Notes: generated by a model not told the origin, from the sequence alone. DNA of 22,911 nt from Geobacterales bacterium (GCA_038206285.1 JBBRBA010000051.1:1-22911); one strand, 5' to 3'. Shown: positions 1-21,766, numbered from the stretch's first letter. Translations and numbers: made by a program.

Positions 1-724
1 GATTATTGGTCAGGGTGACGTTGGTCAAAACAGGGCTGCTCCGCAGGCTGTAGATGCCGCCCCCTTCGAACCAGGCCTGATTGTTGCTGATGAGCAGATT
101 GGTCAGTATCGGGCTGGAACCCAGGTTATAGATGCCGCCGCCGGTGAGGGCGGCGCTATTGCCGGTAATGACGAGATTTGTCAGGGTGGGCGCGGCGTTG
201 ACGATGTAAAAACCGCCGCCGTCGCTGTTAACGCCCGCACCGTCGGCAGTGCCGCCGCTGATGGTGAAACGATCCAGCACCGCGCTGCTGTTGACGCCAT
301 TTGCCACCACCACATGCCAGGAGTTGTCACTTGTGTTCCCCGGCACGCCGATGTCGCCGCTTAAGGTAGTGACGTTGCCGCTGGCAGGCCGCTCGCTCCG
401 GGCGGCCTCACTGCCGCTGAAGCCGCCGTAGATGGCGACGCCGCTCTTCAGCACAAAGGAAACAGTCCGGTCAGCGCCGCTGGTCGGCCGATAGGTACCG
501 GCCTTGACCCAGATCTCGTCACCGGCGCCGGCCAGGGCAATGGCACTCTGCAGGTCGCAGGCGCTCCCCCAGGCGGCGCAGACGCCGCTGGCAAGGCCGC
601 CCGGCTGGGCAAAGCGGATGGTGGCAGCAGCCGGGGTGAAGGCGCCGCTCCAGAGGAGCAGGCAGAGAGCGGTCAGGAACAGTCCGGCAGCGCGGTGGGA
701 ATATTTTGTCTCGTTATGGTTCAT
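1..724 (-). CDS. Secreted right-handed parallel beta-helix repeat protein (Pmp-like / choice-of-anchor-Q-like). Only the N-terminal ~241 aa are present and the gene continues past the left edge of the window.
   Basis: I translated this myself. It is absent from the ORF track because no stop codon lies inside the window. ATG at 724-722 gives MNHNETKYSHRAAGLFLTALCLLLWSGAFTPAAA (signal peptide), then IRFAQPGG..CDLQSAIALAGAGDEIWVKAGTYRPT..FVLKSGVAIYGGF..TTLSGDIG..DNSWHVV..LDRFTISGG. Periodic repeats follow: GGGFYIV..SPTLTNLVITGN / GGGIYN..SPILTNLLISNN / GGGIYS..SPVLTNVTLTNN. A GAGG Shine-Dalgarno (SD) sequence lies about 10 nt upstream. Confidence 0.8.
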   Translation of the reverse strand, partial: MNHNETKYSHRAAGLFLTALCLLLWSGAFTPAAATIRFAQPGGLASGVCAAWGSACDLQSAIALAGAGDEIWVKAGTYRPTSGADRTVSFVLKSGVAIYGGFSGSEAARSERPASGNVTTLSGDIGVPGNTSDNSWHVVVANGVNSSAVLDRFTISGGTADGAGVNSDGGGFYIVNAAPTLTNLVITGNSAALTGGGIYNLGSSPILTNLLISNNQAWFEGGGIYSLRSSPVLTNVTLTNN

Positions 725-772
725 GGCATCAGCCTCGTCATCATGGTTTCGGCAACAGTTGTGCAGCTCGTA

Positions 773-2353
773 TTACGGCGTCTTCCTGGTATCCGGGTTC
801 TTCAACATAAGCTCCTGCGGTTTTTTCTCCACCACCCCGGTTGTGTCGAAAAAAATCTGCACCCTGTCGTATTCCCGCCCGGTGGGGGCAGTCAATACAA
901 CCCAGCAGAAGTGGCTGCCGGTCAGGTCAACGCTGCTCCGCAGCGGAACGGCAAAGGTCACCTGCTCGAGCGGAGCTATTGTGCGTGCCTGGGGGGAGAC
1001 CGCTTCAATCCCTGGTTGACAACCGGTCAGAGCCACAATGTAATCCGCGGTGGTGCTGCCGACGTTTTCAATAACGACATTCATCACCCCCTGCCGCGTG
1101 AGTGAGTTGAACGGAGTGGCGCTCGCATCCTTGATCCAGCCGACCGCTTCGTAGGTGGTAGTGCCGGACTGGGCCGCATCCAGCTCAAGAGCCACCCGCG
1201 AGCTGACCGGCTCAGTTTCTACGACCTTGAGAGCCAGACCGGTCATCTCTGCCAGCCCGGACTTGAAGAGCTTCTTCCCCCGGAGCAGGTAGTCGGTTTC
1301 CGCCTCCGGGTTGGCGGTCAGCAGCGCCAGATCCGCCGCCAGGAGCTGCTTCAGCTGATTCCCCAGACAGGCGCCGGCCACGCTTTTATCCGCCCCGGCC
1401 AGCTGGCTGCGAAAGGCGCTGTAACCGGTCCCCACCTTGTCGCAGTCACTGCCGTCAACCGAGACCAGCTGCCGTGGCAGCAGCAGCGCGCTGTTCCAGT
1501 CGGGCTTGCCGTTGACCAGGGCTGTCGGGAGATAGACGATAGAGCCGGAAAGATCAGGTGGCGCCTGCCCAGCATCGCCATCAGCGGTTAAGGTGGCATG
1601 GACCGGGTGCGCAGATATGTCAAGCCATACGGGAATGTCCGGGGAGAGGGAGAATGTAAATAATGTGGCAGCTGCTTTAGTGACAGTGAAGTTGATGCGG
1701 TAGTCACGGCGGGGCGGGTCGATCTCGTAGCCACGGTAGCTGACCCCGCTCTGGCGCAGGCAGTGGCCGATGGAGAAGGAATCGGTCAGGGTGGACTGTG
1801 CCGCCAGCTCTTTCTCCCCCCGCCACCAGGCGGCCGGGTCGCTGCTGCTTTTCAGCTGCAGAAGGCTGCGGTTGCTGCAGAATCCCTGGGAATCGGCGAT
1901 CCTGTTGCCGCCGCCATCAAGCTGCCAGCCACAGGTGGGGGCAGCAGCAGCGGAACCGTCACTGCAGGCGGCTATGCCGGGACGGCTGTTATTCACCCTG
2001 ACCAGTTCCTCATAGGGGGCAAAGTCCACCGTCTGCAGGTAGCGGAGCGGATAGCTCCAGACCGGCCGGGTCTTGACAAGATTAATAGTGATCGGCTGTT
2101 CCAGCGTGATCTTCCCTGTCGAAGAAGTATCCATGTACGCCACATCCAGATTAGCGGTGAGGCCAAAGGCGATGTCCAGGCTAAGCCACAGCTTATTCTC
2201 GCAGCTAATGTCCGAATCCGTGCTGACACAATATTTGATGGTCGTACCGATTGGCTCGCCGGCGCTGGCCGGCCGCTCCATGACCGGCGCCAGGGCCAGC
2301 AGGAGCAGCAGCGTAAGACAGCGGCGAAAGGCTGATGTAGGTAACATATCCAT
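773..2353 (-). CDS. HAP2/GCS1-like (fusexin-like) secreted protein, paralog 1 (526 aa). Has a signal peptide and no TM anchor.
   Basis: Complete ORF with TAAGGAG directly upstream of the ATG. N-terminal signal peptide RRCLTLLLLLALAPV..ASA. Ten Cys in the mature part are conserved across the three paralogs. Motifs I recognise from eukaryotic HAP2: C-x8-C-ENK near the N-terminus, PVWSYPLRYL, CGWQLDGGGNRIADSQGFC, HCLRQSGVSYRGYE, and the HAP2-GCS1 (PF10699-type) signature LLLPRQLVSVDGSDCDKVGTGYSAFRSQ..ACLGNQLKQLLAADLALL. The C-terminal Ig-like domain reads VMNVVIENVGSTTADYIVALTGC...C..VL. Confidence 0.78.
   Translation of the reverse strand: MDMLPTSAFRRCLTLLLLLALAPVMERPASAGEPIGTTIKYCVSTDSDISCENKLWLSLDIAFGLTANLDVAYMDTSSTGKITLEQPITINLVKTRPVWSYPLRYLQTVDFAPYEELVRVNNSRPGIAACSDGSAAAAPTCGWQLDGGGNRIADSQGFCSNRSLLQLKSSSDPAAWWRGEKELAAQSTLTDSFSIGHCLRQSGVSYRGYEIDPPRRDYRINFTVTKAAATLFTFSLSPDIPVWLDISAHPVHATLTADGDAGQAPPDLSGSIVYLPTALVNGKPDWNSALLLPRQLVSVDGSDCDKVGTGYSAFRSQLAGADKSVAGACLGNQLKQLLAADLALLTANPEAETDYLLRGKKLFKSGLAEMTGLALKVVETEPVSSRVALELDAAQSGTTTYEAVGWIKDASATPFNSLTRQGVMNVVIENVGSTTADYIVALTGCQPGIEAVSPQARTIAPLEQVTFAVPLRSSVDLTGSHFCWVVLTAPTGREYDRVQIFFDTTGVVEKKPQELMLKNPDTRKTP
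848..1156 (-). repeat. Near-identical segment shared by paralog 1 and paralog 3 (encodes the Ig-like C-terminal domain). The partner copy is at 4064-4372.
   Basis: My hand alignment is ungapped at an offset of 3216 nt. It shows about 17 mismatches in 309 nt, including a perfectly identical 119-nt run (1008-1126 = 4224-4342). The corresponding region of paralog 2 is much more divergent. Confidence 0.85.
1621..1780 (-). repeat. Near-identical segment shared by paralog 1 and paralog 2 (central region). The partner copy is at 3230-3389.
   Basis: My hand alignment at an offset of 1609 nt shows 4 mismatches in 160 nt. Weaker but still high similarity continues to about 2068/3677. Paralog 3 is less similar here. 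Confidence 0.85.
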
Positions 2354-2363
2354 GGAAAACTCC

Positions 2364-3962
2364 TTACGGTGTCTTGACGGTGGTATCGCTGTTTTTCAGC
2401 ATCTTCTCCAGCGGCGTCAGGTCACTGACGGCACTTGGGGTGAAGGAGACCAGCTGCTGGGCATATGGCAGCCCGGACGGGGCAGTGAGCGTCACCAGAC
2501 AGCTGCGGCTGCCGCTCTGACCGTTCTCTGCCGTCAGGTTAAAGAGAAACCCGGCCTGGCCACCCGGCGCCAGAGTGCTGGCCTGGGGAGGGATGCTCCC
2601 GCGGATGCCGGGCGTACAGCCGCTCACCGTGACCAGGTAATCGGCAGTGAGCGGACCGCTGTTGCTGACGATCACCTTCAGTGAAGCATCCCGCGAGGTG
2701 ACGCCATGGGGGACTACGCTGGCCGAAACAATCACCCCGGTGGATTCGCTGCTGCTGGCGCCGACCTGAGCGGCGTCAATCTGCAGGCTGAGGCTGGAGT
2801 AGACCAGCTCCGGGGCGATGACGGTCAACTTCTGGCCGGTAAGGGTCGCCAGACCGCCCTTGAAGAGCTTTTTGCCACGCACCAGATAGTCGGTCTCGGC
2901 ATCCGGATTGGCCGCCAGCCGCGCCAGATCCGACGCCAGGAGCTGCTTCAGCTGATTCCCCAGGCAGGCGCCGGCCACGGATCTATCAGCCACCCCCGCC
3001 TGACTGCGAAAGGCGCTGTAGCCGCTCCCCACCCGGTCGCAGTCGCTGCCGTCCCGCGACACCAGCTGCCGTGGCACCAGCAGCAGGTTGTTCTGCCAGT
3101 CGAGCACCTTCGGGTCGTTGGCCGGGGCGCTCGGCACATAGAGGATAGAGCCGGAAAGATCGGCCGGCTGGCCGGCCGGCTGGTCTTCCCCGGTCAGGGT
3201 TGCCTTGATCGGGTGCGCAGACGATCTGTCAAGCCATACGGGAATGTCCGGGGAGACGGAGAATGTAAATAATGTGGCAGCTGCTTTAGTGCCAGTGAGG
3301 TTGATGCGGTAGTCACGGCGGGGCGGGTCGATCTCGTAGCCGCGGTAGCTGACCCCGCTCTGGCGCAGGCAGTGGCCGATGGAGAAGGAGGCTGCCTGAG
3401 TGGACTGCGCTCCCAGCTCCTTTTCTCCCCGCCACCAGGCGGCCGGGTCGCTGCTGCTTTTCAGCTGCAAAAGGTTACGGTTGCTGCAAAACCCCTGGGA
3501 GTCGGCGATCCTGTTGCCGCCGCCATCAAGCTGCCAGCCGCAGCTGGGGGGGGCAGCAGCAACGCCATCCACGCAGGCAGCAATGCCGGGGCTGCTGTTG
3601 AGCACTTTTGTCAGCTCCTCATAGGGGGCAAAATCCACGGTGTGCAGGTAGCGGAGCGGATAGCTCCAGACCGGTTGGGACTTGGCAATATTAATTGTGA
3701 ACGGCGCTTCCAGCGTGGTCTTCTCTCCCCCACCTTTTTGCGTGACCGTCTCCATGTACGCCACATCAAGATTAACGCTATCGCCGAACCCGACCCGCAT
3801 CTGCAGATTGACCTTATTCTCGCAGCTAATGTCCGAATCCGTGCTGACACAAGCGGTATGTACGCTTGTCAGCGGCGCCGGCGCCGCTGACAAGGGGAAC
3901 GGCAGGGCCAGCAGCAGAGCCAGCGGGCAGAGTAACGTAAAGAGACTATTCTTGTTATTCAT
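2364..3962 (-). CDS. HAP2/GCS1-like (fusexin-like) secreted protein, paralog 2 (532 aa). Has a signal peptide and no TM anchor.
   Basis: Complete ORF with an AAGGAG SD upstream of ATG 3962. Signal peptide LFTLLCPLALLLALPFPLSA. It carries the same motif set as paralog 1: CVSTDSDISCENK, PVWSYPLRYLHTVDFAPYEEL, CGWQLDGGGNRIADSQGFCSNR, AAWWRGEKE, HCLRQSGVSYRGYEIDPP, LLLVPRQLVSRDGSDCDRVGSGYSAFRSQ..ACLGNQLKQLLASDLARLA. Its C-terminal Ig-like domain is divergent (LKVIVSNSGPLTADYLVTVSGC...SC.VTL). Confidence 0.78.
   Translation of the reverse strand: MNNKNSLFTLLCPLALLLALPFPLSAAPAPLTSVHTACVSTDSDISCENKVNLQMRVGFGDSVNLDVAYMETVTQKGGGEKTTLEAPFTINIAKSQPVWSYPLRYLHTVDFAPYEELTKVLNSSPGIAACVDGVAAAPPSCGWQLDGGGNRIADSQGFCSNRNLLQLKSSSDPAAWWRGEKELGAQSTQAASFSIGHCLRQSGVSYRGYEIDPPRRDYRINLTGTKAAATLFTFSVSPDIPVWLDRSSAHPIKATLTGEDQPAGQPADLSGSILYVPSAPANDPKVLDWQNNLLLVPRQLVSRDGSDCDRVGSGYSAFRSQAGVADRSVAGACLGNQLKQLLASDLARLAANPDAETDYLVRGKKLFKGGLATLTGQKLTVIAPELVYSSLSLQIDAAQVGASSSESTGVIVSASVVPHGVTSRDASLKVIVSNSGPLTADYLVTVSGCTPGIRGSIPPQASTLAPGGQAGFLFNLTAENGQSGSRSCLVTLTAPSGLPYAQQLVSFTPSAVSDLTPLEKMLKNSDTTVKTP
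3230..3389 (-). repeat. Partner copy of the 1621-1780 repeat (paralog 2 central region).
   Basis: See 1621-1780. Confidence 0.85.
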
Positions 3963-3985
3963 TGGATACTCCTTGGCAGGCGCCG

Positions 3986-5602
3986 CTACGGCGCCTTGAC
4001 CGTGGTGTCGCTATTTTTCAGCAGCAGCTTGTCTGGCGCAGTTTCACTGACAGCGCTTGTGGCGAAGAAAATCTGCACCCTGTCGTATTCCCGCCCGGTG
4101 GGGGCAAGCAATACAACCCGGCAGAAGTGGCTGCCGGTCAGATCGACGCTGCTCCGCAGCGGAAAGGCAAAGGTCACCTGCTCGCGCGGAACGATAGTGC
4201 GCGCCTGGGGGGAGACCGCTTCGATCCCTGGTTGACAACCGGTCAGAGCCACAATGTAATCCGCGGTGGTGCTGCCGACGTTTTCAATAACGACATTCAT
4301 CACCCCCTGCCGCGTGAGTGAGTTGAACGGAGTGGCGCTCGCCTCCGGTATCCAGCCGACCGCTTCGTAGGTTAAAGCGTCGACCTTGGATGGAGCCATC
4401 TCCAGGGCGAGGGTGGAATAGGTGAGCTCCGGGCTTTTGAGCAGCAGCGACGGCTTCCCCAGAGTGGCCATCTCTGCCAGACCGGCCTTGAAGAGCTGCT
4501 TGCCGGAGAGGAGATAGTCGGTCTCGGCAGCGGGATTGGCGGCCAGCCGCGCCAGATCGGCCTGATGGAGCTGCTTCAGCTGGTTCCCCAGGCAGGCGCC
4601 GGCCGCACTCCTGTCCGCCACCCCCCCCTGCCGCCGGAACGCCCCGTAACTGACCCCCACCTTATTGCAGCCGCTGCCGTCGCTGGTCACCATGGTGCGC
4701 GGCACCAGCAGCAGGTTGTGCGTCCAGTCGATCACCTTGGGATCATCGGCAGGCTCAGACGGTACGTAGAGGATGGAGCCGGAGAGGTTCAGCGGCACCG
4801 GCTGCGGAGATTCCCGCCCCACCAGGGAGATCTGCAGCGGATAGGTGACGCTGGCCGGGTCATCACGATAAAAAGGCTTGTCAACAGAGAGCGCGAAGGG
4901 GCTGAGCAGGGTCTCGCCGCTGTAGACGCCGCCGCTGATGTCGAACTCCCGCACCGGCGGATCGATCTCGTAGCCACGGTACTTGACCCCGGACTGCCGC
5001 AGGCAGTGGCCGATGGAGAAGGAGTCGGTCAGGGTGGACTGCGCCCCCAGCTCTTTCTCCCCCCGCCACCAGGCATCGCCCGGCCCACAGTTCTGCAGCT
5101 GTAACAGGTCGCGGTTGCTGCAGAATCCCTGGGAATCGGCAATGGGACTGCCCCCGCCATTAAGCTGCCAGCCGCAGGTGGGGGCGACAGCGTCCGAAGC
5201 ATCAACGCAAGAGGCAATGCCGGGGCGGCTGTTGACCACCTTGACCAGCTCCTCTTTTGGCGCATAATCCACGGTGTGCAGGTAGCGGAGCGGATAGACC
5301 CAGGAGGGCATGCTCTTGCTTACTTTGAGGGTTTCAGCCACGCTACCGCGACCGGCGGCGCCGCTGTAGTTAGCCATCAGGACAGCAGTGACCCCATTGC
5401 TCACCCCGACATTCACTGCCTGCCGGGGGGTACAGACCGTCCTGGTGACGGCCGAATACGACTGCTGGACGCACTTGGTGAAGCTGTTGCTGCCGATGAA
5501 CAGCGCGGCATCTGCCGGACAAGGGGGGCAGAGTGCGGCTGTCAGCAGCAGTAACAGGAGAGCAACGAAATGTGCCCTGGTTGTGATGTCAATAATCTTC
5601 AT
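3986..5602 (-). CDS. HAP2/GCS1-like (fusexin-like) secreted protein, paralog 3 (538 aa). Has a signal peptide and no TM anchor.
   Basis: Complete ORF with a GGAG SD upstream of ATG 5602. Signal peptide HFVALLLLLLTAAL. The N-terminal ~95 aa are divergent. After that: WVYPLRYLHTVDYAPKEEL, CGWQLNGGGSPIADSQGFCSNR, GDAWWRGEKE, HCLRQSGVKYRGYEIDPP, LLLVPRTMVTSDGSGCNKVGVSYGAFRRQ..ACLGNQLKQLHQADLARLA. The Ig-like C-terminal domain is nearly identical to that of paralog 1. Confidence 0.78.
   Translation of the reverse strand: MKIIDITTRAHFVALLLLLLTAALCPPCPADAALFIGSNSFTKCVQQSYSAVTRTVCTPRQAVNVGVSNGVTAVLMANYSGAAGRGSVAETLKVSKSMPSWVYPLRYLHTVDYAPKEELVKVVNSRPGIASCVDASDAVAPTCGWQLNGGGSPIADSQGFCSNRDLLQLQNCGPGDAWWRGEKELGAQSTLTDSFSIGHCLRQSGVKYRGYEIDPPVREFDISGGVYSGETLLSPFALSVDKPFYRDDPASVTYPLQISLVGRESPQPVPLNLSGSILYVPSEPADDPKVIDWTHNLLLVPRTMVTSDGSGCNKVGVSYGAFRRQGGVADRSAAGACLGNQLKQLHQADLARLAANPAAETDYLLSGKQLFKAGLAEMATLGKPSLLLKSPELTYSTLALEMAPSKVDALTYEAVGWIPEASATPFNSLTRQGVMNVVIENVGSTTADYIVALTGCQPGIEAVSPQARTIVPREQVTFAFPLRSSVDLTGSHFCRVVLLAPTGREYDRVQIFFATSAVSETAPDKLLLKNSDTTVKAP
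4064..4372 (-). repeat. Partner copy of the 848-1156 repeat (paralog 3 C-terminal domain).
   Basis: See 848-1156. Confidence 0.85.
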
Positions 5603-5624
5603 GGTGAACTCCGTTGTATGAGCT

Positions 5625-5831
5625 TCATAGCTGTTCCTTTGACGTTTTCCGGCGCTGCCGTTTGCCTGCGCCCTGGTTCAACACTGCCGCCAGTTCATTC
5701 AGATCGGTAAAAGGGGTCCGACTACTGCTGCCGTCCAGCATCTCCACCTGACCGGTGAGCTTGTGCGGATTTTCGCTGTCGTGGCGGTAGATTCTTACAA
5801 GGTAACTTTGTGCGGTCGATAGTTCGGTCAT
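5625..5831 (-). CDS. Small hypothetical protein (68 aa from ATG 5831; the ORF track extends it to a GTG at 5870).
   Basis: The ORF sits 22 nt upstream of paralog 3 on the same strand. Sequence: MTELSTAQSYLVRIYRHDSENPHKLTGQVEMLDGSSSRTPFTDLNELAAVL followed by a basic tail GKRQRRKTSKEQL. No convincing SD precedes either candidate start. I do not recognise a named family. Coding status rests on length, position and the lack of an alternative. Confidence 0.45.
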   Translation of the reverse strand: MTELSTAQSYLVRIYRHDSENPHKLTGQVEMLDGSSSRTPFTDLNELAAVLNQGAGKRQRRKTSKEQL

Positions 5832-5853
5832 GATGACATGGTGGCACACGCCT

Positions 5854-5874
5854 ACCCACAGATGACCCACAGAT
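5854..5874 (-). promoter_or_regulatory. Tandem 10-bp direct repeat with 11-bp phasing. Candidate regulator-binding site upstream of the small ORF and fusexin-like block.
   Basis: The plus strand reads acccacagat-g-acccacagat (5854-5863 and 5865-5874). On the minus strand this is ATCTGTGGGT-C-ATCTGTGGGT. It lies between the regulator stop (5943) and ATG 5831. Confidence 0.3.
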
Positions 5875-5942
5875 TGGAAAATAACTAAAGAATGGAATAT
5901 GTATTGATCAGTTTTGCGCGGGGAAGAGCGGCAAATGCGGCA

Positions 5943-8900
5943 TTATTGCTGTTGAATGATGGCGGTATAGACGGCGGTGGTTTCCGGGGAGGGCTCGATG
6001 CCGAGTTCGCTCTGAAGCAGGCTGCGGCAGCGTTTGTAGCTCCTGACGGCGTCGGCGTGGTTGCCGAGCCGCTTTTGACAGATCATCAGGCGGCGGTAAA
6101 ACTCTTCGGCCAGGCTGTCGGTCTCGATCCCTTTCGTGTACAGCTCAGAGGCCTTTTCCCACTCACCGACCCGTTCATTCTGACGGCCCGCTGCAAGAAC
6201 GATGCGCAGCAGCCGGTTCTTAAGGGTTTCACGACTGGAGAGTACCCACGGCAAGGCGGAATCAGCAGGGAGGAAAGCTCCTTTGTTCAGACCGAGTGCC
6301 TTTTCGCACGACAGCACGGACTGGTCGTCCGCGAGCGCTTGCGCCCGGTCGAAAATATGTCGGAGCGCCAGGCTGTCCACCCAGCAATAAAGGGGATTGA
6401 TGGTCAGCTGGCGAGTCCGGCAGGTGACGACGTCATCCCTGCCGAGCAGCCGCCGCAGCCGGCTCAGGGTGGTTTCGAAGGACTTGCGGGCCTGGTCGCC
6501 ATCGGCATCGGGCCAAAGGACATCGGTCAGTCGCTCCTCGGGCACGTCCCGGCCGCCGAAGGCGATCAGGCTTTTTAGCAGTTCCAGCGGCTTTTTCTGC
6601 TCCTTGCCGCTAAAAGGCAGCGGCTCGCTGTCCCTGATGATCTCGAAACGGCCAAGGGTATAGACCTTGACCGGATAGGGCCATTCCTCCAGCAGCGCGG
6701 CAGACGGTTCGACACCGCTGTCTGTCACTGGCGGCGCCAGGTGAAGCTTCCTGATCAGCCCCTTCACGTACTCCGGCTCGATCCGTTCCTCCAGCGCCGT
6801 GGCACAGAGAAAGCCCATGACCGCTGGCTGATAGAACTCCAGATGGAGATAGCCGTGCCGCCGCCCCAGCCCGAACCCGCGGTGCAGCGCCAGCAAACCT
6901 TCGCTTCGCATGCCGTCCTGCAACAGAAACCAGGCTTCGAGCAGCAGCGAGTACCACTCCATGACCTGGCTCTTCATGCTCAGGCTGATGCGGTGGGCCG
7001 TCCGCACGAGCGTGGTCGCCTCGCCGGTGCGCCCCTGCATGAAAGCGGCCTGGGCCATGCCGATATGCCATAATGCGCGGTAGTAAGGGGTTCCCATCCG
7101 TTCGATCTGCCCGGAGACGGCCTCCAGGTGCCCGGCGGCACGCGACGGGTTGTTGCAAAGGAGCGCCAGCCAGGAGGCATTGACGTGATAGAAAAAGACG
7201 TTCAGCGCATTCTCCATGCCGAGCAGGGAGCGCAGCTGCTGTTGCAGCGCCAGTTCAGCGTTCGCCAGGTTGCCGGGCGCCAGCTCCGCCGCCGCCTTGA
7301 AGCTCCACAACAGGGAGTCGTAAATATGGACGCCGCTGTTCGCGGAGATCTCCAGCCCTTCGGTGAGGACCTGCAACGCCTCCTGATACCCGGCGGTAAT
7401 CCAGCAATGGATACCTTTCATCAGCTTGATGCGGATGAGCGCAAAGGGGGACGGCTGGCGATGACGAACCTCGACCGCCGCTCGTTCGAGCAGCAGAGCA
7501 TTCTTGTCGTACTCTCCCCGCCAGAGATAATAGATGCTCATACAGAAGACCGTATCCATCTGGATATCAAAGGACGGTTTCAGTTGCAGCAGGCCGGTTA
7601 CTCGCTGCAGCCACAACTCTACCCTGTGCGGCTGATCGGTTTTTCTCAATGTGAGTGAGAGGAGCATTCGCGATGAGACGATCAGTTCGGTGTCCAGGGT
7701 TGGAAATGATGGAAAGCTGCGCTGCAGTTCGTCAAAATCCACCAGGCAGTCATCCAGAGGCTTCCACTCGTCCCCGAAGACATGGGTGTCGACGATGGCC
7801 GCCCACGCAAGATAGCAGCCGGAGGGATCGCCATCCGCCCTGAAAGCTGTCAGGGCCTTTTCCAGAAAACTCCTGCTACGGGGGAGGTCAAGCGGAAACG
7901 AACTGATACCGTTCCAGTACAAAAGCCAGGGGTCATGATCCAGAATTTCGCCGGGGATACAGGCGAGCCATTCTGCCAGGGTCCGGCTCCTCCCCTGGAG
8001 GAGCAGTTCCCTTCCGTGACAGGCCACCATCCTGGCCAGGCTGTCATGGTCTCCGGATTTTGCGTACAAAAGCGCTGCGTCGTCCCGCTGCCCCGACTGT
8101 TCCAGCAGCAGTGCGGCATCTCTTTGCAGCCGCGCCACTCTATCAGCACTGAATTCGCTCACAGCCCTGCTCAGAAGAAATTCCCTGAAGAGAGGATGGT
8201 AGCGATAGTCCTGCCCGCTGCCGGACAGTTTTTCGGTAAAATAATGATGGCGGTTCAGGCTGGCGAGGATATCCCCGGCAGCTGCGAGTCCGGTCAGCTT
8301 TTCGGCCAGAGAAACGCTGAGCATGGGGAGCATGGCGGTTTTCAGCAGAAATTCCTGAATATCTTTCTCTTTGTGATTGAACAGCTCTCCGGCAAAATAA
8401 TCGAAGACCCTGTCTGAAGCCAAGTCCGCGAAAGATGTGATCCCGTCCCATTCCAACCCTGCCCGCTCCTGCATCAGGATTATCCCGGCAACCCACCCTT
8501 CGGTCCGCGCATGCATCCGTACGACCAGTTCCGGGTCAGGAAGCGGTCGGCGGCGCGCCATCAGTTCGCTGGATTCGTCGACGGTGAAGCGGAGATCATT
8601 ATTGTCGAGGGTTGCAATTTTGCCGTTGGACTGCAACCGCGCCAGTGAGGGGGGCGGCAGCTCCCGGCTCAGGACTACAACATGAATGTCGGCGCAGATC
8701 GAAGTCAGTGCGGTGGCGATCATGTCGTGGAACGCGGCCTCGGTCGGTACGTCCTGGTAGTTGTCAAGGACGATGACAAACCCGGGCAATCTCCCGTCTG
8801 TTGCCGGGGAAGGCTGGAGGCGACTGCAAAGTATTTCGAAATAACGACGGGTAAAGGTTGGGACGCCGGCAAGATATTCCGGAGTCAGAAGCGGCAGCGG

Positions 8901-9182
8901 TTTCCTGTGGCGCGGTGCGGCAAGCTTTGCTGCCAGCCCCATGTAGTAGAAAAAGGTGGCGAGGTCTGCATCCCCTTCATCACATTGATACCAGATACAG
9001 GGAAGCTCCTGCGCATCAAGGTAACTGGCGACAAGGGTCGATTTGCCCGAACCGCCAGGCGCAGTTATCCAGGTAACCGGATGCTGTGCCGCTGAATCAA
9101 GCAGTGCAAACAGTCGTTCCCTTTGGACCGGCTTCGTCAGAGTCGGTCGCGCTAATTTTGCCAATGCCGCTTTAGTAGCCAT
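5943..9182 (-). CDS. Large STAND-type signal-transduction ATPase regulator (1079 aa). It has a MalT-like N-terminal P-loop NTPase, a helical/TPR-like middle region, and a C-terminal OmpR/PhoB-type winged helix plus BTAD (SARP-type) module.
   Basis: N-terminus LAKLARPTLTKPVQRERLFALLD..VTWITAPGGSGKSTLV (Walker A). FVIVLDNYQDV (Walker B-like). A long helical repeat region follows. The last ~242 aa (about 5946-6671) read VKVYTLGRFEIIRDSEPLPFSGKEQKKPLELLKSLIAFGGRDVPEERLTDVLWPD..ARKSFETTLSRLRRLLG (wHTH), then ELYTKGIETDSLAEEFYRRLMICQKRLGNHADAVRSYKRCRSLLQSELGIEPSPET (BTAD). Confidence 0.85.
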   Translation of the reverse strand: MATKAALAKLARPTLTKPVQRERLFALLDSAAQHPVTWITAPGGSGKSTLVASYLDAQELPCIWYQCDEGDADLATFFYYMGLAAKLAAPRHRKPLPLLTPEYLAGVPTFTRRYFEILCSRLQPSPATDGRLPGFVIVLDNYQDVPTEAAFHDMIATALTSICADIHVVVLSRELPPPSLARLQSNGKIATLDNNDLRFTVDESSELMARRRPLPDPELVVRMHARTEGWVAGIILMQERAGLEWDGITSFADLASDRVFDYFAGELFNHKEKDIQEFLLKTAMLPMLSVSLAEKLTGLAAAGDILASLNRHHYFTEKLSGSGQDYRYHPLFREFLLSRAVSEFSADRVARLQRDAALLLEQSGQRDDAALLYAKSGDHDSLARMVACHGRELLLQGRSRTLAEWLACIPGEILDHDPWLLYWNGISSFPLDLPRSRSFLEKALTAFRADGDPSGCYLAWAAIVDTHVFGDEWKPLDDCLVDFDELQRSFPSFPTLDTELIVSSRMLLSLTLRKTDQPHRVELWLQRVTGLLQLKPSFDIQMDTVFCMSIYYLWRGEYDKNALLLERAAVEVRHRQPSPFALIRIKLMKGIHCWITAGYQEALQVLTEGLEISANSGVHIYDSLLWSFKAAAELAPGNLANAELALQQQLRSLLGMENALNVFFYHVNASWLALLCNNPSRAAGHLEAVSGQIERMGTPYYRALWHIGMAQAAFMQGRTGEATTLVRTAHRISLSMKSQVMEWYSLLLEAWFLLQDGMRSEGLLALHRGFGLGRRHGYLHLEFYQPAVMGFLCATALEERIEPEYVKGLIRKLHLAPPVTDSGVEPSAALLEEWPYPVKVYTLGRFEIIRDSEPLPFSGKEQKKPLELLKSLIAFGGRDVPEERLTDVLWPDADGDQARKSFETTLSRLRRLLGRDDVVTCRTRQLTINPLYCWVDSLALRHIFDRAQALADDQSVLSCEKALGLNKGAFLPADSALPWVLSSRETLKNRLLRIVLAAGRQNERVGEWEKASELYTKGIETDSLAEEFYRRLMICQKRLGNHADAVRSYKRCRSLLQSELGIEPSPETTAVYTAIIQQQ

Positions 9183-9212
9183 CGCATCCGTAGATTATTG
9201 AAGTTGGCAATT

Positions 9213-9230
9213 CACTAATGAAAATTAGTG
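9213..9230. promoter_or_regulatory. Perfect inverted repeat CACTAAT-GAAA-ATTAGTG in the leader/promoter of the STAND regulator gene.
   Basis: Seen directly about 31 bp upstream of ATG 9182. Two further palindromes follow: ATGTTGCAACAT at 9246-9257 and GAACA-N6-TGTTC at 9264-9279. Confidence 0.3.
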
Positions 9231-9300
9231 TACAGCAGCTGTCGCATGTTGCAACATAAACCGGAACATGATCCTGTTCTCTGCCGGCAAAAATGTCTGC

Positions 9301-9342
9301 AGACACAAAACGCCCCCCACTCTGGCAAGTGAAGGGCGTTTT
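9301..9342 (-). terminator. Rho-independent terminator downstream of frr.
   Basis: The minus strand reads AAAACGCCC-TT-CACT-TGCCAG-AGTG-GG-GGGCGTTTT followed by GTGTCT. This is a GC-rich interrupted stem ending in a T run, about 33 nt after the frr stop. Confidence 0.65.
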
Positions 9343-9374
9343 CAATTCTACGTAGAAAGCTGCGAGGGGCTGAA

Positions 9375-9932
9375 CTACACCTCCATGACCTCTTTCTCTT
9401 TATGGCCAAGCACTTCGTCAACTTTGGCAACGTGCTTGTCAGTCAGGTCCTGGACCTCTTTTTCGACCCGCTTCAGTTCGTCTTCAGTAATCTTCTTGTC
9501 CTTTTCCAGCTTCTTCAGCTTGTCGATGGCATCACGGCGAATGTTGCGCAGGGCGATCCGGTCATCTTCGGCTTTTTTCTTCAGATCCTTGACAATATCC
9601 TTGCGCCGCTCTTCGGTGAGCGCGGGGAGTATAAGGCGGATCAGCTTGCCGTCGTTGGAGGGGGTCAGACCGATATTCGCGTTAAGAATCGCTTTTTCTA
9701 TCAGGGCGATCAACTTCGGCTCCCAAGGGGAGATGGTGATGGTTCTGGCCTCCGGCACTGCCATGTTGGCAACGGCGCTGATCGGTGAAAGGTTGCCGTA
9801 ATAGTCAACTTTTATGTCATCAAGCAGCGCTGTAGAGGCTCGCCCGGTCCGGATTTTTGCATATTCACGGCGAAGAGTGTCAATAGTCTTGACCATATGA
9901 TCTGTCATGTCTTTGATAATATCTTTTGTCAT
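9375..9932 (-). CDS. frr: Ribosome recycling factor.
   Basis: 185 aa. Contains IRTGRASTALLDDIKVDYYG..SPISAVANMAVPEARTITISPWEP, LTEERRKDIVK and RNIRRDA, the typical RRF sequence and length. The SD GGGGAG lies inside the pyrH 3' end. It follows pyrH by 2 nt, the classical gene order. Confidence 0.97.
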   Translation of the reverse strand: MTKDIIKDMTDHMVKTIDTLRREYAKIRTGRASTALLDDIKVDYYGNLSPISAVANMAVPEARTITISPWEPKLIALIEKAILNANIGLTPSNDGKLIRLILPALTEERRKDIVKDLKKKAEDDRIALRNIRRDAIDKLKKLEKDKKITEDELKRVEKEVQDLTDKHVAKVDEVLGHKEKEVMEV

Positions 9933-9934
9933 AA

Positions 9935-10663
<729 letters not shown>

Positions 10664-10820
10664 CTAGCCCAGGAACTGGATAAGTGCGTTAACGAAATTA
10701 TTTTCCGATCAGCCCCGAAGGCGGGATAAGTACGTGCACAAAATAACTTCTGGAAAAACGCAGAATTGATTTTTAACGTACTAAAAACGCAGAAAGTAAT
10801 TTCTAACTTACTAAAGGATG

Positions 10821-13936: not shown

Positions 13937-15027
13937 ATATTCTCAGTCGCTATCTTGTGCGTACCTATCTGGGGATGATTGCCACTTGCCTGGGAGCATT
14001 TGTTGCCATTTATCTCCTCGTCGATTTCATGGAAAAGTTTGGCAAATTCAGCCGCGCCGGCGCGCCGCTGACATCAGTTCTGCTCTACTTCCTCTGCAAG
14101 ATTCCGGAGATCATCGCCCAGACAACTTCGATGGCGGTTCTTATGGGAACGATCCTGGCTATCGGCACGCTGTCAAAAAACAGCGAGATAACCGCCATGC
14201 GGAGCAGCGGTATAAGCCTTGTGCAGATCGGCAGACCGCTGCTGGTTACGGCCGCTCTTTTCAGCCTCATGCTGCTGCTGATGCAGGAGTTTGTTACGCC
14301 GGCATCCAATGAGAAAATGCGCCACATCGAACAGGTGGAGATGAAGAAGGTGCAGCCGCAGGAATATGAGAAGTGGACTCTTTTCCGCTGGAACAACATC
14401 TGGCACCGGGATGATAACCTGATTCTGCAGGCAAAGCTCTTCAATCCCGACACTTCAACCCTTTCCGGAATCACGTTATGGGAGGTTGACCGGGAATTGA
14501 GGCCTGTCTCAAGGATTGATGCTGCAACGGCTATCCCGGCTGTCAACGGCTGGCAGTTTCAGAATTTGACCAAAAGAGTTTTTACTCAGCCTGGTGGCGT
14601 TGCGGTATCGAGCAACAGTAAGGAATTTGTCAAACTGGATCTTGTGGTTGCCGATCTGAAAGTCGTTGCCAAATCTGCCGAAGATATGGGGTTCCGCGCG
14701 CTGTTACGCTACTGCGAGACAGTAAGCGCCAGCGGTTATGATGCAACCCACTACCTGACCCTGCTGCATGCAAAACTATCGCTGCCGTTTGCCGCCCTGA
14801 TCATGGCTTTCCTCGGGATACCGTTTTCGCTGAAGGATAATCGCTCCGGAGGAGTATGGATAGGGGTCGGCATCAGTATTCTCATCGGTTTTTCCTACTT
14901 TATCATCAATGCGCTGCTGCTGTCATTGGGACAGGCCGGAGCGCTCCCGCCGCCGGTTGCCGCCTGGGCGGCAAATCTGCTGTTTGCCGGGGCGGGATTA
15001 TGGTTTACACTTACGGTAGACTCTTAA
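13933..15027 (+). CDS. lptG: LPS export ABC transporter permease LptG (YjgP/YjgQ family).
   Basis: MNILSRYLVRTYLGMIATCLGAFVAIYLLVDFMEKF.. with the same TM / periplasmic domain / TM architecture as lptF and translational coupling to it. Confidence 0.88.
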   Translation: MNILSRYLVRTYLGMIATCLGAFVAIYLLVDFMEKFGKFSRAGAPLTSVLLYFLCKIPEIIAQTTSMAVLMGTILAIGTLSKNSEITAMRSSGISLVQIGRPLLVTAALFSLMLLLMQEFVTPASNEKMRHIEQVEMKKVQPQEYEKWTLFRWNNIWHRDDNLILQAKLFNPDTSTLSGITLWEVDRELRPVSRIDAATAIPAVNGWQFQNLTKRVFTQPGGVAVSSNSKEFVKLDLVVADLKVVAKSAEDMGFRALLRYCETVSASGYDATHYLTLLHAKLSLPFAALIMAFLGIPFSLKDNRSGGVWIGVGISILIGFSYFIINALLLSLGQAGALPPPVAAWAANLLFAGAGLWFTLTVDS

Positions 15028-15048
15028 CGGTAAATCAGGGAGCACTTT

Positions 15049-15915
15049 ATGCGTCAAATCATAACGGCATTAATTATGGCACTGGTATTGTGCACAACTG
15101 CTTTTGCTGAAGACGAGTCGATGCAGTCTCCGCCGATACTGAGCATAATTCCCGGGCAAGGGGCTCCAGCTACAAGAGTAGTTATCTCCGGGACAGGCTT
15201 TACTCTGGAGACGGTCCTGTATCTCGGTATCGAAGCGGTTCCGGTAAAACTCCTGTCGTCACGGCAGCTAAGCTTCGAAATTCCGCAGATTGCTGCCGGG
15301 AACTATGCCCTCTATCTGCGCCAGAATGGAGGCGAAAGCGGCAAGGCATATTCGTTTGCGGTCGTGCCGGTAAAGCCGGTCGCGACTTCGGTTTCGCCGG
15401 ACAGCATTGCGTACTGCGCATCAGGAGATGACCGGAAGGTAGCTGTCAGAGGGAAAAATTTTCTTGAAGGGGCGCAAGTTGTTTTTGACGGCGCCATGAT
15501 AAGAAGCAGCCGCATTTCCGGCGAAGAGATGACCTTTACCGCACCGCCGGTTCCCGGAGGGCTTCATCAGGTGCAGGTCAAAAACCCGGAGGAGACTCTT
15601 TCCGGGGCGGTAGCCCTGTTGGTAAACAACCGGCCGGAACTACGCAACGTCAGCCAGGGGGCTGATTATGTTAACTATTACGATTTGAATATTGAGGGGA
15701 TCAATTTCCAGCAGGGATCCGTCCTGGTAGTTAACGGGAAGACGGTCCAGATGGGTTATTCTTATTATGGAGTGCAGGACAGCCTGGCCTTTGTAAGTTG
15801 CACCAGGCTGATCTATCGGCGCTATCCTTACGACCCGACATCAAAAAACCTGGATATTAGGATAGTTAATCCCGGCGGCGAAGAGAGCAGCAGCTTTACG
15901 GTGACGGCGCCCTAG
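15049..15915 (+). CDS. Secreted IPT/TIG-domain repeat protein.
   Basis: A GGGAG SD precedes the start. Signal peptide MRQIITALIMALVLCTTAFA. Repeated modules of about 85-90 aa follow, of the type P.I.SI.P..G...T.V.I.G.GF........G...v......s...l.F..P, for example PILSIIPGQGAPATRVVISGTGF and PVATSVSPDS..KVAVRGKNFLEGAQVVFDG..EEMTFTAPPVPGGLHQVQVKNP. Confidence 0.75.
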   Translation: MRQIITALIMALVLCTTAFAEDESMQSPPILSIIPGQGAPATRVVISGTGFTLETVLYLGIEAVPVKLLSSRQLSFEIPQIAAGNYALYLRQNGGESGKAYSFAVVPVKPVATSVSPDSIAYCASGDDRKVAVRGKNFLEGAQVVFDGAMIRSSRISGEEMTFTAPPVPGGLHQVQVKNPEETLSGAVALLVNNRPELRNVSQGADYVNYYDLNIEGINFQQGSVLVVNGKTVQMGYSYYGVQDSLAFVSCTRLIYRRYPYDPTSKNLDIRIVNPGGEESSSFTVTAP

Positions 15916-17653
15916 CCCTTCCGGAAAATTTGCGAATAACGGCCAGATTCTCTGCTGCCGCCTGGTAATCGGGCTGCAGGCGTAATGCCTGCTCAAAAGA
16001 TGCTTCTGCCTCCTGAAGACGACCCAGTCCCGCATAGGCGAGTCCGAGATTGAACCGGGTGGCTGCCGTAGTCGGCGAAAGTTTTGCCACCTGCAGCAAC
16101 TCTCTGACAGCTTCATCATACCGCTTCTGCTTGAGATAGATCGCGCCGAGATTGTTCAGCGCGATATGATCCGTTGGCGAAAGTCTGACCGCCTGCCGGT
16201 ACGCCACTTCGGCATCATTCAGCCGTCCGCTTCGCTGATATGCATGGCCGAGCGCTCCATACCCTCTCCCTTTTGCCGGACTTTTTCTGACGACATCCTC
16301 CCAGAGAGTCACTTCACTCTGCCAGACACGGTTGCGCTGCACTGTCGCTACTCCCAGCAGAAGCGCTATTATGCAGCCGACCGCCAGAAGACCCTTCGCC
16401 GTCTTTTTCGTATCACTGCCCAACCATCTGTACACCGCCCGCCATCCGGCCGCAGCAAGGCCTGTCACCAGCCCGACAGACGGCAGATAAAGCCGGTGTT
16501 CGAACATGACATCACGAATGGGTATGACGCTTGATTCGACCAGGAGCGCGATGAAAAACCAGGCGATGCCGAATGCCGGGAGCGCCAAGAGACCGGTCCT
16601 AGCGTCAGTTGCGCGTCGTGCCGAAAGCCATGAGCCGATGCCGGCGGCAACAACAGCTGCCAGCAGCAGAATTGATAGAATTACCGGAGGCTGGAGCAAG
16701 CTATTATGTAGCGGAAAATCGTGGTCAAGATTCTGCCCTGCCGGGAAAAAGAAGAGCCGCAGATAGGAAACGATCACCGGAAACTGGGTCAGGAGGTAGG
16801 TCATTCTCGGCGGTGCGCCGCTTTCGGCAGTCAGCCGACCCACTTCGTCAAGCATGTCGGCAGAGAAACCGATTTTACCCAGCAGAAGTATGGGCGCTGC
16901 CAGCAACGGCAATAGATACCAGACAAGAGGCAGCAGCCGGCTGCGCAGTTCGCCCCGGAAAAAAGTCACTTCAAAGAGCAGAATTACCAGCGGGATTGTT
17001 ACTGCGTTTTCCTTTGCCAAGACTCCGGCCAGAGCCAGCAGCAGTGAGAGTCCGAGCAGGCCTGTTGCTGCCGGACGCCTGGAAGAGAGCCTGGAACCGG
17101 CATAGCAGAGCAGGGCGCCGAGATAAAAGGATGTTGCCATAACGGCAACCCGCTGGGCAAGATAGGTTACTGCCTGGGTCTGCAGGGGGTGGGTGACAAA
17201 GATTAATGCTGCCACAAAACCGATAGTAACCGGCGCAGAAGATTCCTGCCCCGGTTTTTCTCCGGCAATACCGGCCAGAAGCGGCGTACGAAAAATCATT
17301 TGCACCAGAGAATAGACGAGGCAAGCGTTCAGCAGATGCAGCAGCAGGTTGACAACATGGTAACCAGCCACCTCGAAACCGCCCAGTTGATAGTTGAGGG
17401 CAAAGGAGAGGTCGCCGAGGATACGGGTCTTGAGCCTGAAGTCGAAATTTTTGACCAGCGGGTTGGTCAGGATGGAGGTGACGTCGTCGAGCACAAAGGG
17501 GACGGCAAAGCTGTTGGCGTAGACCAATCCCCCGGCTGTCAGGATGCAGAAAATTGACAGCAGATGGAAAACCGCCGGCGACAGCGCCATCGCCGGCCCG
17601 GCAGCAGACTTTGCCGCAGTCGCGACTGATTTACCTGCTCTTTTTTTACTCAT
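15896..17653 (-). CDS. GT-C-type polytopic membrane glycosyltransferase with C-terminal TPR repeats (TMTC / PMT_2-like architecture).
   Basis: Many TM helices. The first-loop acidic motif FAVPFVLDDVTSILTNPLV matches the F-x-F-DD-x-x-I-x-x-N motif of TMTC/DUF1736-type O-mannosyltransferases. The C-terminal ~150 aa are TPR-like (GYGALGHAYQRSGRLNDAEVAYRQAVRLSP..NNLGAIYLKQKRYDEAV..FNLGLAYAGLGRLQEAEASFEQALRLQPDY). I place the start at ATG 17653 (MSKKRAGKS). The ORF-track extension to 17818 crosses the ahcY terminator. Confidence 0.7.
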   Translation of the reverse strand: MSKKRAGKSVATAAKSAAGPAMALSPAVFHLLSIFCILTAGGLVYANSFAVPFVLDDVTSILTNPLVKNFDFRLKTRILGDLSFALNYQLGGFEVAGYHVVNLLLHLLNACLVYSLVQMIFRTPLLAGIAGEKPGQESSAPVTIGFVAALIFVTHPLQTQAVTYLAQRVAVMATSFYLGALLCYAGSRLSSRRPAATGLLGLSLLLALAGVLAKENAVTIPLVILLFEVTFFRGELRSRLLPLVWYLLPLLAAPILLLGKIGFSADMLDEVGRLTAESGAPPRMTYLLTQFPVIVSYLRLFFFPAGQNLDHDFPLHNSLLQPPVILSILLLAAVVAAGIGSWLSARRATDARTGLLALPAFGIAWFFIALLVESSVIPIRDVMFEHRLYLPSVGLVTGLAAAGWRAVYRWLGSDTKKTAKGLLAVGCIIALLLGVATVQRNRVWQSEVTLWEDVVRKSPAKGRGYGALGHAYQRSGRLNDAEVAYRQAVRLSPTDHIALNNLGAIYLKQKRYDEAVRELLQVAKLSPTTAATRFNLGLAYAGLGRLQEAEASFEQALRLQPDYQAAAENLAVIRKFSGRARAPSP

Positions 17654-17876: not shown

Positions 17877-19271
<1,395 letters not shown>

Positions 19272-19305
19272 TGTTTACGCTCCTTTGGGTGATATTTTAT
19301 TCAAA

Positions 19306-20715: not shown

Positions 20716-20730
20716 GTTAGCTGCTCCTGA

Positions 20731-21756: not shown

Positions 21757-21766
21757 TGTTTACCTT

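Follow-up and report, generated by a model that had tools for sequence, protein, structure and literature searches.

Can a protein of the HAP2/GCS1 family be native to a bacterium, and if so, what might it do there? HAP2/GCS1 is the ancestral gamete fusogen of eukaryotes and fuses sperm and egg in plants and protists, and its origin is debated, with a viral, an archaeal, or an eukaryotic source under discussion. The question is raised by three tandem genes on contig C51, a stretch of 22,911 bp that is analyzed here at its full length (the window) and that belongs to a metagenome-assembled genome (MAG) of a Geobacterales bacterium, a Geobacteraceae-like inhabitant of sediment (3.08 Mb, 124 contigs, 81% complete, 1% contaminated). 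A preliminary description had claimed that these genes encode HAP2/GCS1-like class II ectodomains, and this core claim is borne out by the match to the family profile PF10699, the predicted fold, the cysteine positions, and the bacterial nature of the contig, all of which agree. The three genes are real HAP2/GCS1 homologues and form a separate bacterial branch of the family; this branch, newly found and devoid of a membrane anchor, probably has a different job from gamete fusion. Among prokaryotic fusexins, only the archaeal Fsx1 proteins have been described so far in the searchable literature (subscription journals lie outside its coverage), which holds no paper on bacterial HAP2-family proteins, in agreement with the earlier statement that no bacterial HAP2-like locus has been characterized. 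The genes, named a, b, and c in the order of transcription (aa, amino acids), are the following.

3986..5602, minus strand: HAP2-like gene a (P0003), 538 aa; PF10699 E 2e-60; Sec-type signal peptide, domains I–III, and a short conserved C-terminal tail, without a transmembrane (TM) anchor
2364..3962, minus strand: HAP2-like gene b (P0002), 532 aa; PF10699 E 3e-58; PDB 5ow4 E 6e-35
773..2353, minus strand: HAP2-like gene c (P0001), 526 aa; PF10699 E 2.7e-66; modeled by AlphaFold2 (AF2)

HAP2 family membership and fold

The three open reading frames (ORFs) lie in tandem on the minus strand where they had been placed, are uninterrupted, and are separated by gaps of 23 and 10 nt. A Shine–Dalgarno sequence, GGAG or AAGGAG, is found 6–8 nt ahead of every start; in gene b, it is AAGGAG at 6 nt, and in gene c, it is overlapped by the stop codon of gene b. 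Each protein starts with a basic region, which is followed by a hydrophobic stretch and closes with an AxA-type end. Both the Shine–Dalgarno sites and the Sec-type signal peptides of the preliminary description, the latter cleavable, are present. The motifs quoted there, CVSTDSDISCENK, PVWSYPLRYL, CGWQLDGGGNRIADSQGFC, HCLRQSGVSYRGYE, DGSDCDKVGTGYSAFRSQ, and ACLGNQLKQL, are found in the second and/or third gene, and the first gene carries variant versions of CVSTDSDISCENK and PVWSYPLRYL. No TM segment follows domain III in any of the three proteins, and the label "ectodomains" is therefore literally correct. A lipoprotein anchor was considered and rejected: the sole signal peptide that contains a cysteine, that of gene a (AALC), misfits the lipobox and is unconserved in the orthologue.

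Profile and sequence searches place all three proteins in the HAP2 family. The matches to PF10699 (HAP2-GCS1) are highly significant for each, scoring 198–225 bits against a cutoff of 27.4 and covering profile positions 2–479 of 515, and the same search in 14 control genomes gave no match, which rules out chance. No NCBIfam model matches the three proteins. Searched against solved HAP2 ectodomains, the closest structure is that from Trypanosoma cruzi (5ow4, E 6e-35), followed by those from Chlamydomonas (1e-24), Arabidopsis, and Cyanidioschyzon.

The predicted structure leads to the same assignment. The AF2 model of protein c, built from a 55-row alignment, has a predicted local distance difference test (pLDDT) score of 90.7 and a predicted template modeling (pTM) score of 0.81. 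With this model, Foldseek returns Chlamydomonas HAP2 on top (E 2e-39, template modeling score 0.78–0.85), followed by Arabidopsis HAP2, archaeal Fsx1 (2e-17), EFF-1, and the class II proteins of bunyaviruses and flaviviruses. Structural alignment by VIA-align gives a Z score of 30.0 and a root-mean-square deviation (rmsd) of 2.3 Å over 421 residues for Chlamydomonas HAP2 (5mf1) and a Z score of 27.1 for Arabidopsis HAP2 (5ow3), to be compared with 17.9 for Fsx1 and 12–16 for viral Gc/E1. The model thus displays the three-domain class II arrangement, with HAP2 as the best match by far, and resembles a post-fusion hairpin, deviating by an rmsd of 26 Å from the monomeric prefusion structure 7s0k.

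Ten HAP2-type cysteines and a Glu-Arg pair are retained. All ten cysteines of the mature proteins align with cysteines kept in 93–100% of 27 eukaryote-type HAP2 rows, and the ten conserved cysteines thus sit at HAP2 positions, as proposed. E115 is present in every one of the 55 aligned rows, and R178 is conserved in no fewer than 90%; by alignment, they correspond to E126 and R185 of Chlamydomonas HAP2, in which the salt bridge between these residues organizes the tip that interacts with the membrane and is essential to both fusion and liposome binding (PMC5332557). The cd (fusion) loop of the bacterial proteins comprises a short predicted helix, SLLQLK (residues 164–169), and then AAWWRG, in which a conserved tryptophan directly precedes the arginine. 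L164, L167, and W177-R178-G179 are invariant among 15 close relatives, the subclade of the window. Several relatives are without the domain III disulfide. In two relatives (L041 1480–3399 and L042 130–1917), most of the cd loop, which is flanked by the conserved motifs SQGFC and HC(L/M)R, is lost.

The bacterial and eukaryotic proteins part after domain III. Eukaryotic sequences continue into a GAQGG-type stem start, whereas those of the bacterial clan terminate after a motif of their own. The three proteins of the window end about 25 residues past domain III in this clade-specific tail, and the pattern K-H-x3-Y-S/P-W-E/D-L-x2-K-N-E/D is conserved in most clade members.

A separate, anchor-less bacterial branch

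When 1.84 billion cluster representatives were searched exhaustively with phmmer, 536 matches were obtained at E <= 1e-3 and 83 at <= 1e-30. The ~40 best full-length relatives (33–52% identity) have an N-terminal signal-like segment and no hydrophobic segment after domain III, and most of them end within 25 residues in the common tail motif. The remaining matches (24–31% identity) have a TM helix at about position 520–630 and a cytoplasmic tail. All of the named anchored matches are eukaryotic HAP2 proteins (Andalucia, Physarum, Malawimonas, Naegleria, and Streblomastix), and two unnamed ones are surrounded by eukaryote-like genes.

In a maximum-likelihood tree (LG+C20 PMSF, 78 rows, unrooted, without Fsx1), the 40 anchor-less rows are separated from anchored eukaryotic HAP2 with a branch support of 99/98 (97 in a quick tree of 123 rows), and the core eukaryotic rows lie behind a further branch with a length of 0.63 and a support of 100/100. 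As the tree is unrooted, it shows the separateness of the two groups and not the direction of transfer. One TM-anchored HAP2, P0143 (L057 5230–7464), is encoded on a contig with RCC1/WD40 and MORN genes, an eukaryote-like context; it has a very long branch and is placed without resolution at the base of the anchor-less clan, either through long-branch attraction or as the nearest eukaryotic relative of the bacterial clade.

The neighborhoods of other clan members are bacterial, containing a TRAP transporter, PIN/HigB, a 7TMR-DISM kinase with a LytTR regulator, and a pseudopilin, and the carriers are MAGs labeled Nitrospira, Planctomycetota, Olavius-associated Delta 1, and Gammaproteobacteria. 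The clan is distributed over at least four or five phyla and is about as deep internally as the eukaryotic clan, and the G+C content (GC) of the locus, 0.44–0.65, matches that of each surrounding contig. The distribution is sparse. A HAP2-like gene was found in none of 1,160 other sampled genomes (60 relatives, 400 of the same phylum, 400 of the phylum of the Planctomycetota carrier, and 300 of the phylum of the Nitrospira carrier). A scan for the clade with two peptide patterns gave 4 genome and 35 metagenome matches, both lower bounds; a genome-contig scan with a single protein and a pattern-limited scan of a viral contig collection each gave no relative.

Several members of the clade carry additional modules. 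Some have Bact_surface_Ig-like domains or dockerins at the C terminus, and others have TIG or DUF7467 domains and collagen triple-helix repeats at the N terminus; all of these modules are of an extracellular type. A TIG-like domain and collagen Gly-X-Y repeats lie ahead of the HAP2 domain in L020, L038, L039, and L043 (also P0025, P0026, and P0030), among them the copy of Delta 1, the symbiont of the gutless worm Olavius. In L026 (2349–4118) and L027, which has the same genes, two ORFs of 278 and 251 aa stand in place of one HAP2-like gene, owing to a frameshift or a sequencing error. Three loci, L024 (14189–14521), L026, and L027, share an identical ORF of 110 aa a few genes further downstream, which by its sequence resembles a fragment of a transposase.

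The anchor-less clade could, though we consider this doubtful, be an old bacterial HAP2 lineage rather than a recent loan from eukaryotes, in which case eukaryotes would have acquired their fusogen from bacteria, or both would have drawn on a shared mobile gene pool around eukaryogenesis, and bacteria would use a class II machine for a novel kind of membrane interaction between cells. Such a lineage is compatible with a single clan that lies outside the sampled eukaryote-type rows, P0143 excepted, with its comparable internal depth, with its spread over four or five phyla, and with the match in GC between locus and contig. In any case, the bacterial branch is far nearer to HAP2 in sequence and fold than Fsx1 is and constitutes a fourth candidate reservoir. 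Used as an outgroup or sister group, it makes the origin of HAP2 testable by rooted, structure-aided phylogeny.

The three genes of the window are differentiated paralogues, and the same three genes are found in the same a/b/c order in L005/L006, from other metagenomes, with only about 52% identity. Protein a is orthologous to P0008 of L006/L023 (support 99/99), and domain III of protein b is orthologous to that of the b-type gene of L005/L006. The N-terminal segment of protein a shows 42% identity across loci versus 23% within the locus, and domain III of protein b 55% across loci versus 38–39% within the locus. Protein c is a mosaic in both loci, with an N-terminal part that is b-like (58% and 77%) and a domain III that is a-like (93% and 80%). 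The 93% identity of domain III between a and c within the window points to segmental gene conversion. The recurrence of one mosaic pattern in distant loci indicates that the triplet is old and has been kept as three different proteins that are partly homogenized by gene conversion. This is the pattern that would be expected for the subunits of one assembly, short of proof. Cofolding of mature c with a gave a median score of 0.31 against a mark of 0.32 (controls 0.00), which speaks neither for nor against co-assembly. Ratios of nonsynonymous to synonymous substitution rates (dN/dS) between orthologues are 0.17–0.76.

The island and its operon

The remaining features of the island part of the window, together with the first core gene beside it, are as follows.

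1..9200, no strand assigned: segment of an island that was gained horizontally and is located between frr and uppS; on the left, the island extends beyond the contig edge
2..724, minus strand: 5' part of a giant adhesin-like gene that is cut by the contig end; signal peptide and beta-helix/PMP-like N terminus
5625..5831, minus strand: ORF of 68 aa, flanked by the regulator gene and HAP2-like gene a; no signal peptide, basic C terminus
5854..5874, minus strand: tandem direct repeat ATCTGTGGGT-N-ATCTGTGGGT with an 11-bp period, upstream of the 68-aa ORF
5943..9182, minus strand: regulator, 1079 aa, with a MalT-like STAND ATPase N terminus, TPR repeats, and a C-terminal SARP (winged helix and BTAD) DNA-binding part
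9375..9932, minus strand: frr, the first core gene beside the island, followed by pyrH, tsf, rpsB, lptF, and lptG

The right 13.7 kb of the contig contain frr, pyrH, tsf, rpsB, lptF, lptG, genes for a TIG-domain protein and a TPR/glycosyltransferase-like protein, and ahcY; the order and orientation of the core genes are identical in five genomes of the same genus, at a protein identity of 82–91%. The HAP2-like genes had been described as contiguous with frr-pyrH-tsf-rpsB; they are not directly adjacent to frr, from which the 1079-aa regulator gene and the small ORF separate them. In the congeners, uppS-cdsA-dxr-rseP directly follow frr, whereas in the genome of the window these genes are placed on contig C76, and the HAP2 region is thus part of an insertion between frr and uppS. 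On C76, on the other side of the frr-uppS gap, positions 14804–16588 hold further noncore ORFs, which by sequence resemble an HprK-related kinase and a nucleotidyltransferase, so that the island is bigger than the portion in the window. The window has no tRNA gene, a common insertion site of islands, and no Rfam family, and no conjugation or integrase genes are among its genes.

Three glycosylation-type genes (a PMT_2-like membrane protein, a STELLO-like protein, and a GT2) lie on the minus strand at 19306–22504, between ahcY and a methyltransferase gene. Because the latter two are directly adjacent in two congeners (L012 and L014), the three genes represent a second small strain-specific insertion on the contig. 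The pyrH-tsf spacer (10698–10798) has several alternative sequences among the contigs of the source run, corresponding to strain variants, and the depth over ahcY (18010–19343) rises to 541, presumably from conserved copies in other organisms.

The composition of the island raises the suspicion that eukaryotic DNA was misassembled or misbinned into a bacterial MAG. Among 5-kb windows, the left 9.2 kb stand at the 99.7th percentile in GC (0.62, with 0.54 as the mean of the genome), and their tetranucleotide distance is at the 98.6th percentile; the genome is a MAG that is 81% complete, and the stretch occurs in only one public sequencing run, a DNA run of a sediment metagenome. An artifact of this kind is nonetheless extremely improbable. 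In the independent Logan assembly of the source run, a contig of 3,109 nt covers positions 7595–10703, from the regulator to frr/pyrH, with zero mismatches, and the depth in Logan contigs is even, about 9–12, on both sides of the junction between island and core. The junction is no assembler chimera, and the contig is bacterial. The Shine–Dalgarno sites, the operon spacing, the intron-free genes, and the bacterial MalT/SARP regulator argue in the same direction, the same operon occurs in several other metagenomes, and the clade into which its proteins fall is set apart from all sequences of the eukaryote type.

The operon has a conserved order consisting of the MalT/SARP-type regulator, the tandem 10-bp repeat, the 68-aa ORF, one to three HAP2-like genes, and the giant Ig/LamG/beta-helix adhesin, with intergenic gaps of 10–48 nt and with neighbors that recur in 3–8 loci. 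Scans for sigma-70 and terminator consensus sequences near the operon gave nothing beyond shuffled expectation. The regulator matches BTAD (5e-22), AAA_16, and NPHP3_N in Pfam and, in NCBIfam, MalT over residues 8–420 (6e-50) and AfsR over residues 839–1077 (9e-12); its homologues lie upstream of HAP2-like genes in L023 and L024, which brings the count to 3 loci with the window. The ATCTGTGGGT repeat is identical in the window and L023 despite diverged flanking intergenic DNA, and its tandem form occurs a single time in the 3.08-Mb genome; it is a candidate operator of the adjacent SARP-type regulator. The 68-aa ORF is matched in L023/L006 by an orthologue in the corresponding place and, more weakly, in L024; it has no Pfam or NCBIfam match, and its nearest Atlas clusters are unnamed small proteins of Thermodesulfobacteriota.

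Homologues of the adhesin (1078–1637 aa) directly follow HAP2-like genes in L006, L022, and L024–L027. The recurrence is counted as 6 loci (the window, L006, L022, and L024–L027), with sizes of about 0.8–1.6 thousand aa, and L006/L022 and L026/L027 are near-duplicate contigs. The domains of these homologues are Laminin_G_3, Big_3_5, fn3, He_PIG, Big_9, and cadherin-like.

Possible roles and comparison with known systems

With a confidence that we put at about even, the HAP2 homologues of the separate bacterial branch act as a secreted, trimer-forming, membrane-inserting, harpoon-like adhesion module together with the adhesin, and not as autonomous fusogens. The proteins would be exported via Sec and oxidized to disulfide-bonded monomers, which would assemble into trimeric rods of the class II type; in the window, the three conserved paralogues may together form a heterotrimeric rod. 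Such a rod would drive the tip of domain II, with its short LLxL helix and conserved tryptophan beside the arginine, into a foreign lipid membrane, and the protein would serve as an extracellular membrane-targeting or harpoon-like adhesion head that works with the cotranscribed adhesin. Collagen repeats are an obligate trimerizing module. In the collagen-fused relatives, the stalk would be placed on domain I, by analogy with the post-fusion form opposite the fusion loops, and with the stalk joined to domain I, these loops would face away from the producer. Trimerization and insertion are proposed because the soluble ectodomain of Chlamydomonas HAP2 inserts into liposomes and trimerizes unaided by an anchor or an acid trigger (PMC5332557). 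Since a protein without a C-terminal anchor cannot by itself draw two bilayers together, we read it as an adhesion module rather than as an autonomous fusogen. Among the functions suggested earlier, canonical hairpin-driven cell–cell fusion is therefore the least supported, and adhesion or membrane targeting fits better.

Several observations weigh against this proposal. A Sec signal alone leaves the protein of a diderm in the periplasm, neither a dedicated secretion system nor a surface anchor was found in the locus, and no recognizable C-terminal sorting signal was found in the adhesin orthologues. Four cysteines that are kept in 96–100% of the eukaryote-type rows are mostly missing from the bacterial clan; three of them lie in the cd-loop region, which they staple in eukaryotes, and with their loss, the domain II tip may be built differently. 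As most of the cd loop is lost in L041 and L042, membrane insertion cannot be a role of the entire clade. The post-fusion-like hairpin of the AF2 model may have its source in the structures that have been solved and not in biology. Every carrier found is a MAG or a metagenomic contig, none an isolate, and no RNA run with this stretch is among the public sequencing runs.

Alternatively, the class II fold may have been reused at the surface for structure or adhesion alone, for example as a rod, a spacer, or a binder of ligands, with no insertion into a membrane. Fusions to dockerin, bacterial Ig-like, TIG, and collagen modules are typical of surface fibers and scaffolds, the two relatives without most of the cd loop and the several that have lost the domain III disulfide fit the same picture, and the dN/dS values are fairly high, as in surface proteins. 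The invariance of the cd-loop features (the L164/L167 helix and W177-R178-G179) among the 15 sequences of the subclade of the window and the retention of the tip-organizing Glu-Arg pair argue to the contrary, and we regard a purely structural role as unlikely, albeit the likeliest of the alternatives. The proteins, which keep a proven fusogen's fold, Glu-Arg pair, and hydrophobic cd loop, could instead be working fusogens, with the ectodomain tethered to the outer membrane or vesicles of the producer through the adhesin or the C-terminal tail and fusing outer membranes, vesicles, or cells, for example within aggregates or between syntrophic partners. The conserved clade-specific tail would offer a tether, and the conserved pairing with an adhesin echoes the logic of adhesion plus HAP2 in gametes (PMC13601591). 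None of the 40 clade members has a TM anchor, however, and the adhesins are likewise without a recognizable one; the outer leaflet of diderms, established to be lipopolysaccharide, is a poor target for fusion loops; and a gene absent from all 1,160 other sampled genomes of three phyla is far too rare for core physiology. We rate fusion as somewhat less probable still than the purely structural role.

The patchy, island-borne distribution is one that is also seen for conflict genes, and it raises the prospect of secreted effectors against eukaryotes (grazers, hosts, or algae), either as a trimer that damages membranes or as a soluble mimic that interferes with HAP2-dependent gamete fusion by blocking or hijacking it. 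One carrier, Olavius Delta 1, is an animal symbiont, and no prokaryotic or viral class II protein is as close to the proteins as eukaryotic HAP2 is. The locus has no toxin-like partner, immunity gene, or secretion system, though, the carriers are mostly free-living bacteria of sediments and lakes, and there is zero evidence for an eukaryotic target, and we rate such effectors as improbable, below fusion. A harpoon-like adhesion module is accordingly the reading that we retain. Whichever role applies, the branch is a natural experiment in which a class II ectodomain is kept without an anchor, sometimes on a collagen stalk and sometimes as three differentiated paralogues, and it can show what the fold does when fusion cannot be completed. 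The small, anchor-less, naturally soluble ectodomains may also suit structural and biophysical work on the triggering of HAP2.

Compared with eukaryotic HAP2/GCS1 (5mf1, 6dbs, and 6e18 from Chlamydomonas, 5ow3 from Arabidopsis, and 5ow4 from T. cruzi), the bacterial proteins show homology over the whole ectodomain, domains I, II, and III, at 24–31% identity, with Z scores of 27–30 and rmsd values of 2.3–3.4 Å. They share the ten cysteine positions, the glutamate and arginine of the fusion-loop scaffold, and the PF10699 signature segment DGS-C-KVG...AFR-Q...C-L-NQL. The main differences are that the bacterial proteins have no stem, TM helix, or cytoplasmic tail, lack the four near-invariant eukaryotic cysteines, and have a tryptophan before the conserved arginine. 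Their genes, moreover, share a bacterial operon with those of a regulator and an adhesin, and the proteins occur in the window as three differentiated tandem paralogues and form a separate clan in the tree.

Archaeal Fsx1 (PDB 7p4l; Moi et al. 2022, PMC9259645) is similarly a prokaryotic class II fusexin that resides on horizontally mobile DNA with a composition distinct from that of the host genome. It is distant from the proteins of the window, with 12–13% identity and a Z score of 17.9 compared with 26% and 30 for HAP2, and its relation to HAP2 was detected by comparison of hidden Markov models with one another (HMM-HMM; PMC9259645). The Fsx1 that has been characterized ends in three TM helices, and its expression leads to cell fusion (PMC9259645); Fsx1 is found in conjugative-type integrated elements of Haloarchaea, whereas the proteins of the window are HAP2 proper by sequence, are anchor-less, and have no conjugation genes nearby. 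Three entries of the Fsx1 family from MAGs labeled as bacterial were considered by the authors to be possible cases of misbinning (PMC9259645). At least one haloarchaeal integrated element that carries fsx1 also encodes a LamG/Big-domain protein (PMC9259645, Supplementary Data 2), a possible parallel to the bacterial LamG/Big adhesin.

The viral class II proteins (flavivirus E, alphavirus E1, and bunyavirus Gc) and EFF-1 of Caenorhabditis elegans share the three-domain fold and the hairpin-like arrangement seen in the model (Z 12–16). Their sequence identity is 6–10%, and all of them are membrane-anchored, in contrast to the anchor-less proteins of the window, which are encoded on a bacterial chromosome. 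The surface fibers and adhesins of bacteria that are built on collagen stalks or Ig repeats resemble the relatives in their collagen triple-helix, TIG, dockerin, and Bact_surface_Ig-like modules, and the neighboring multi-Ig/LamG adhesin is of the same kind. To our knowledge, no known bacterial adhesin family has the ectodomain of a class II fusion protein as its head.

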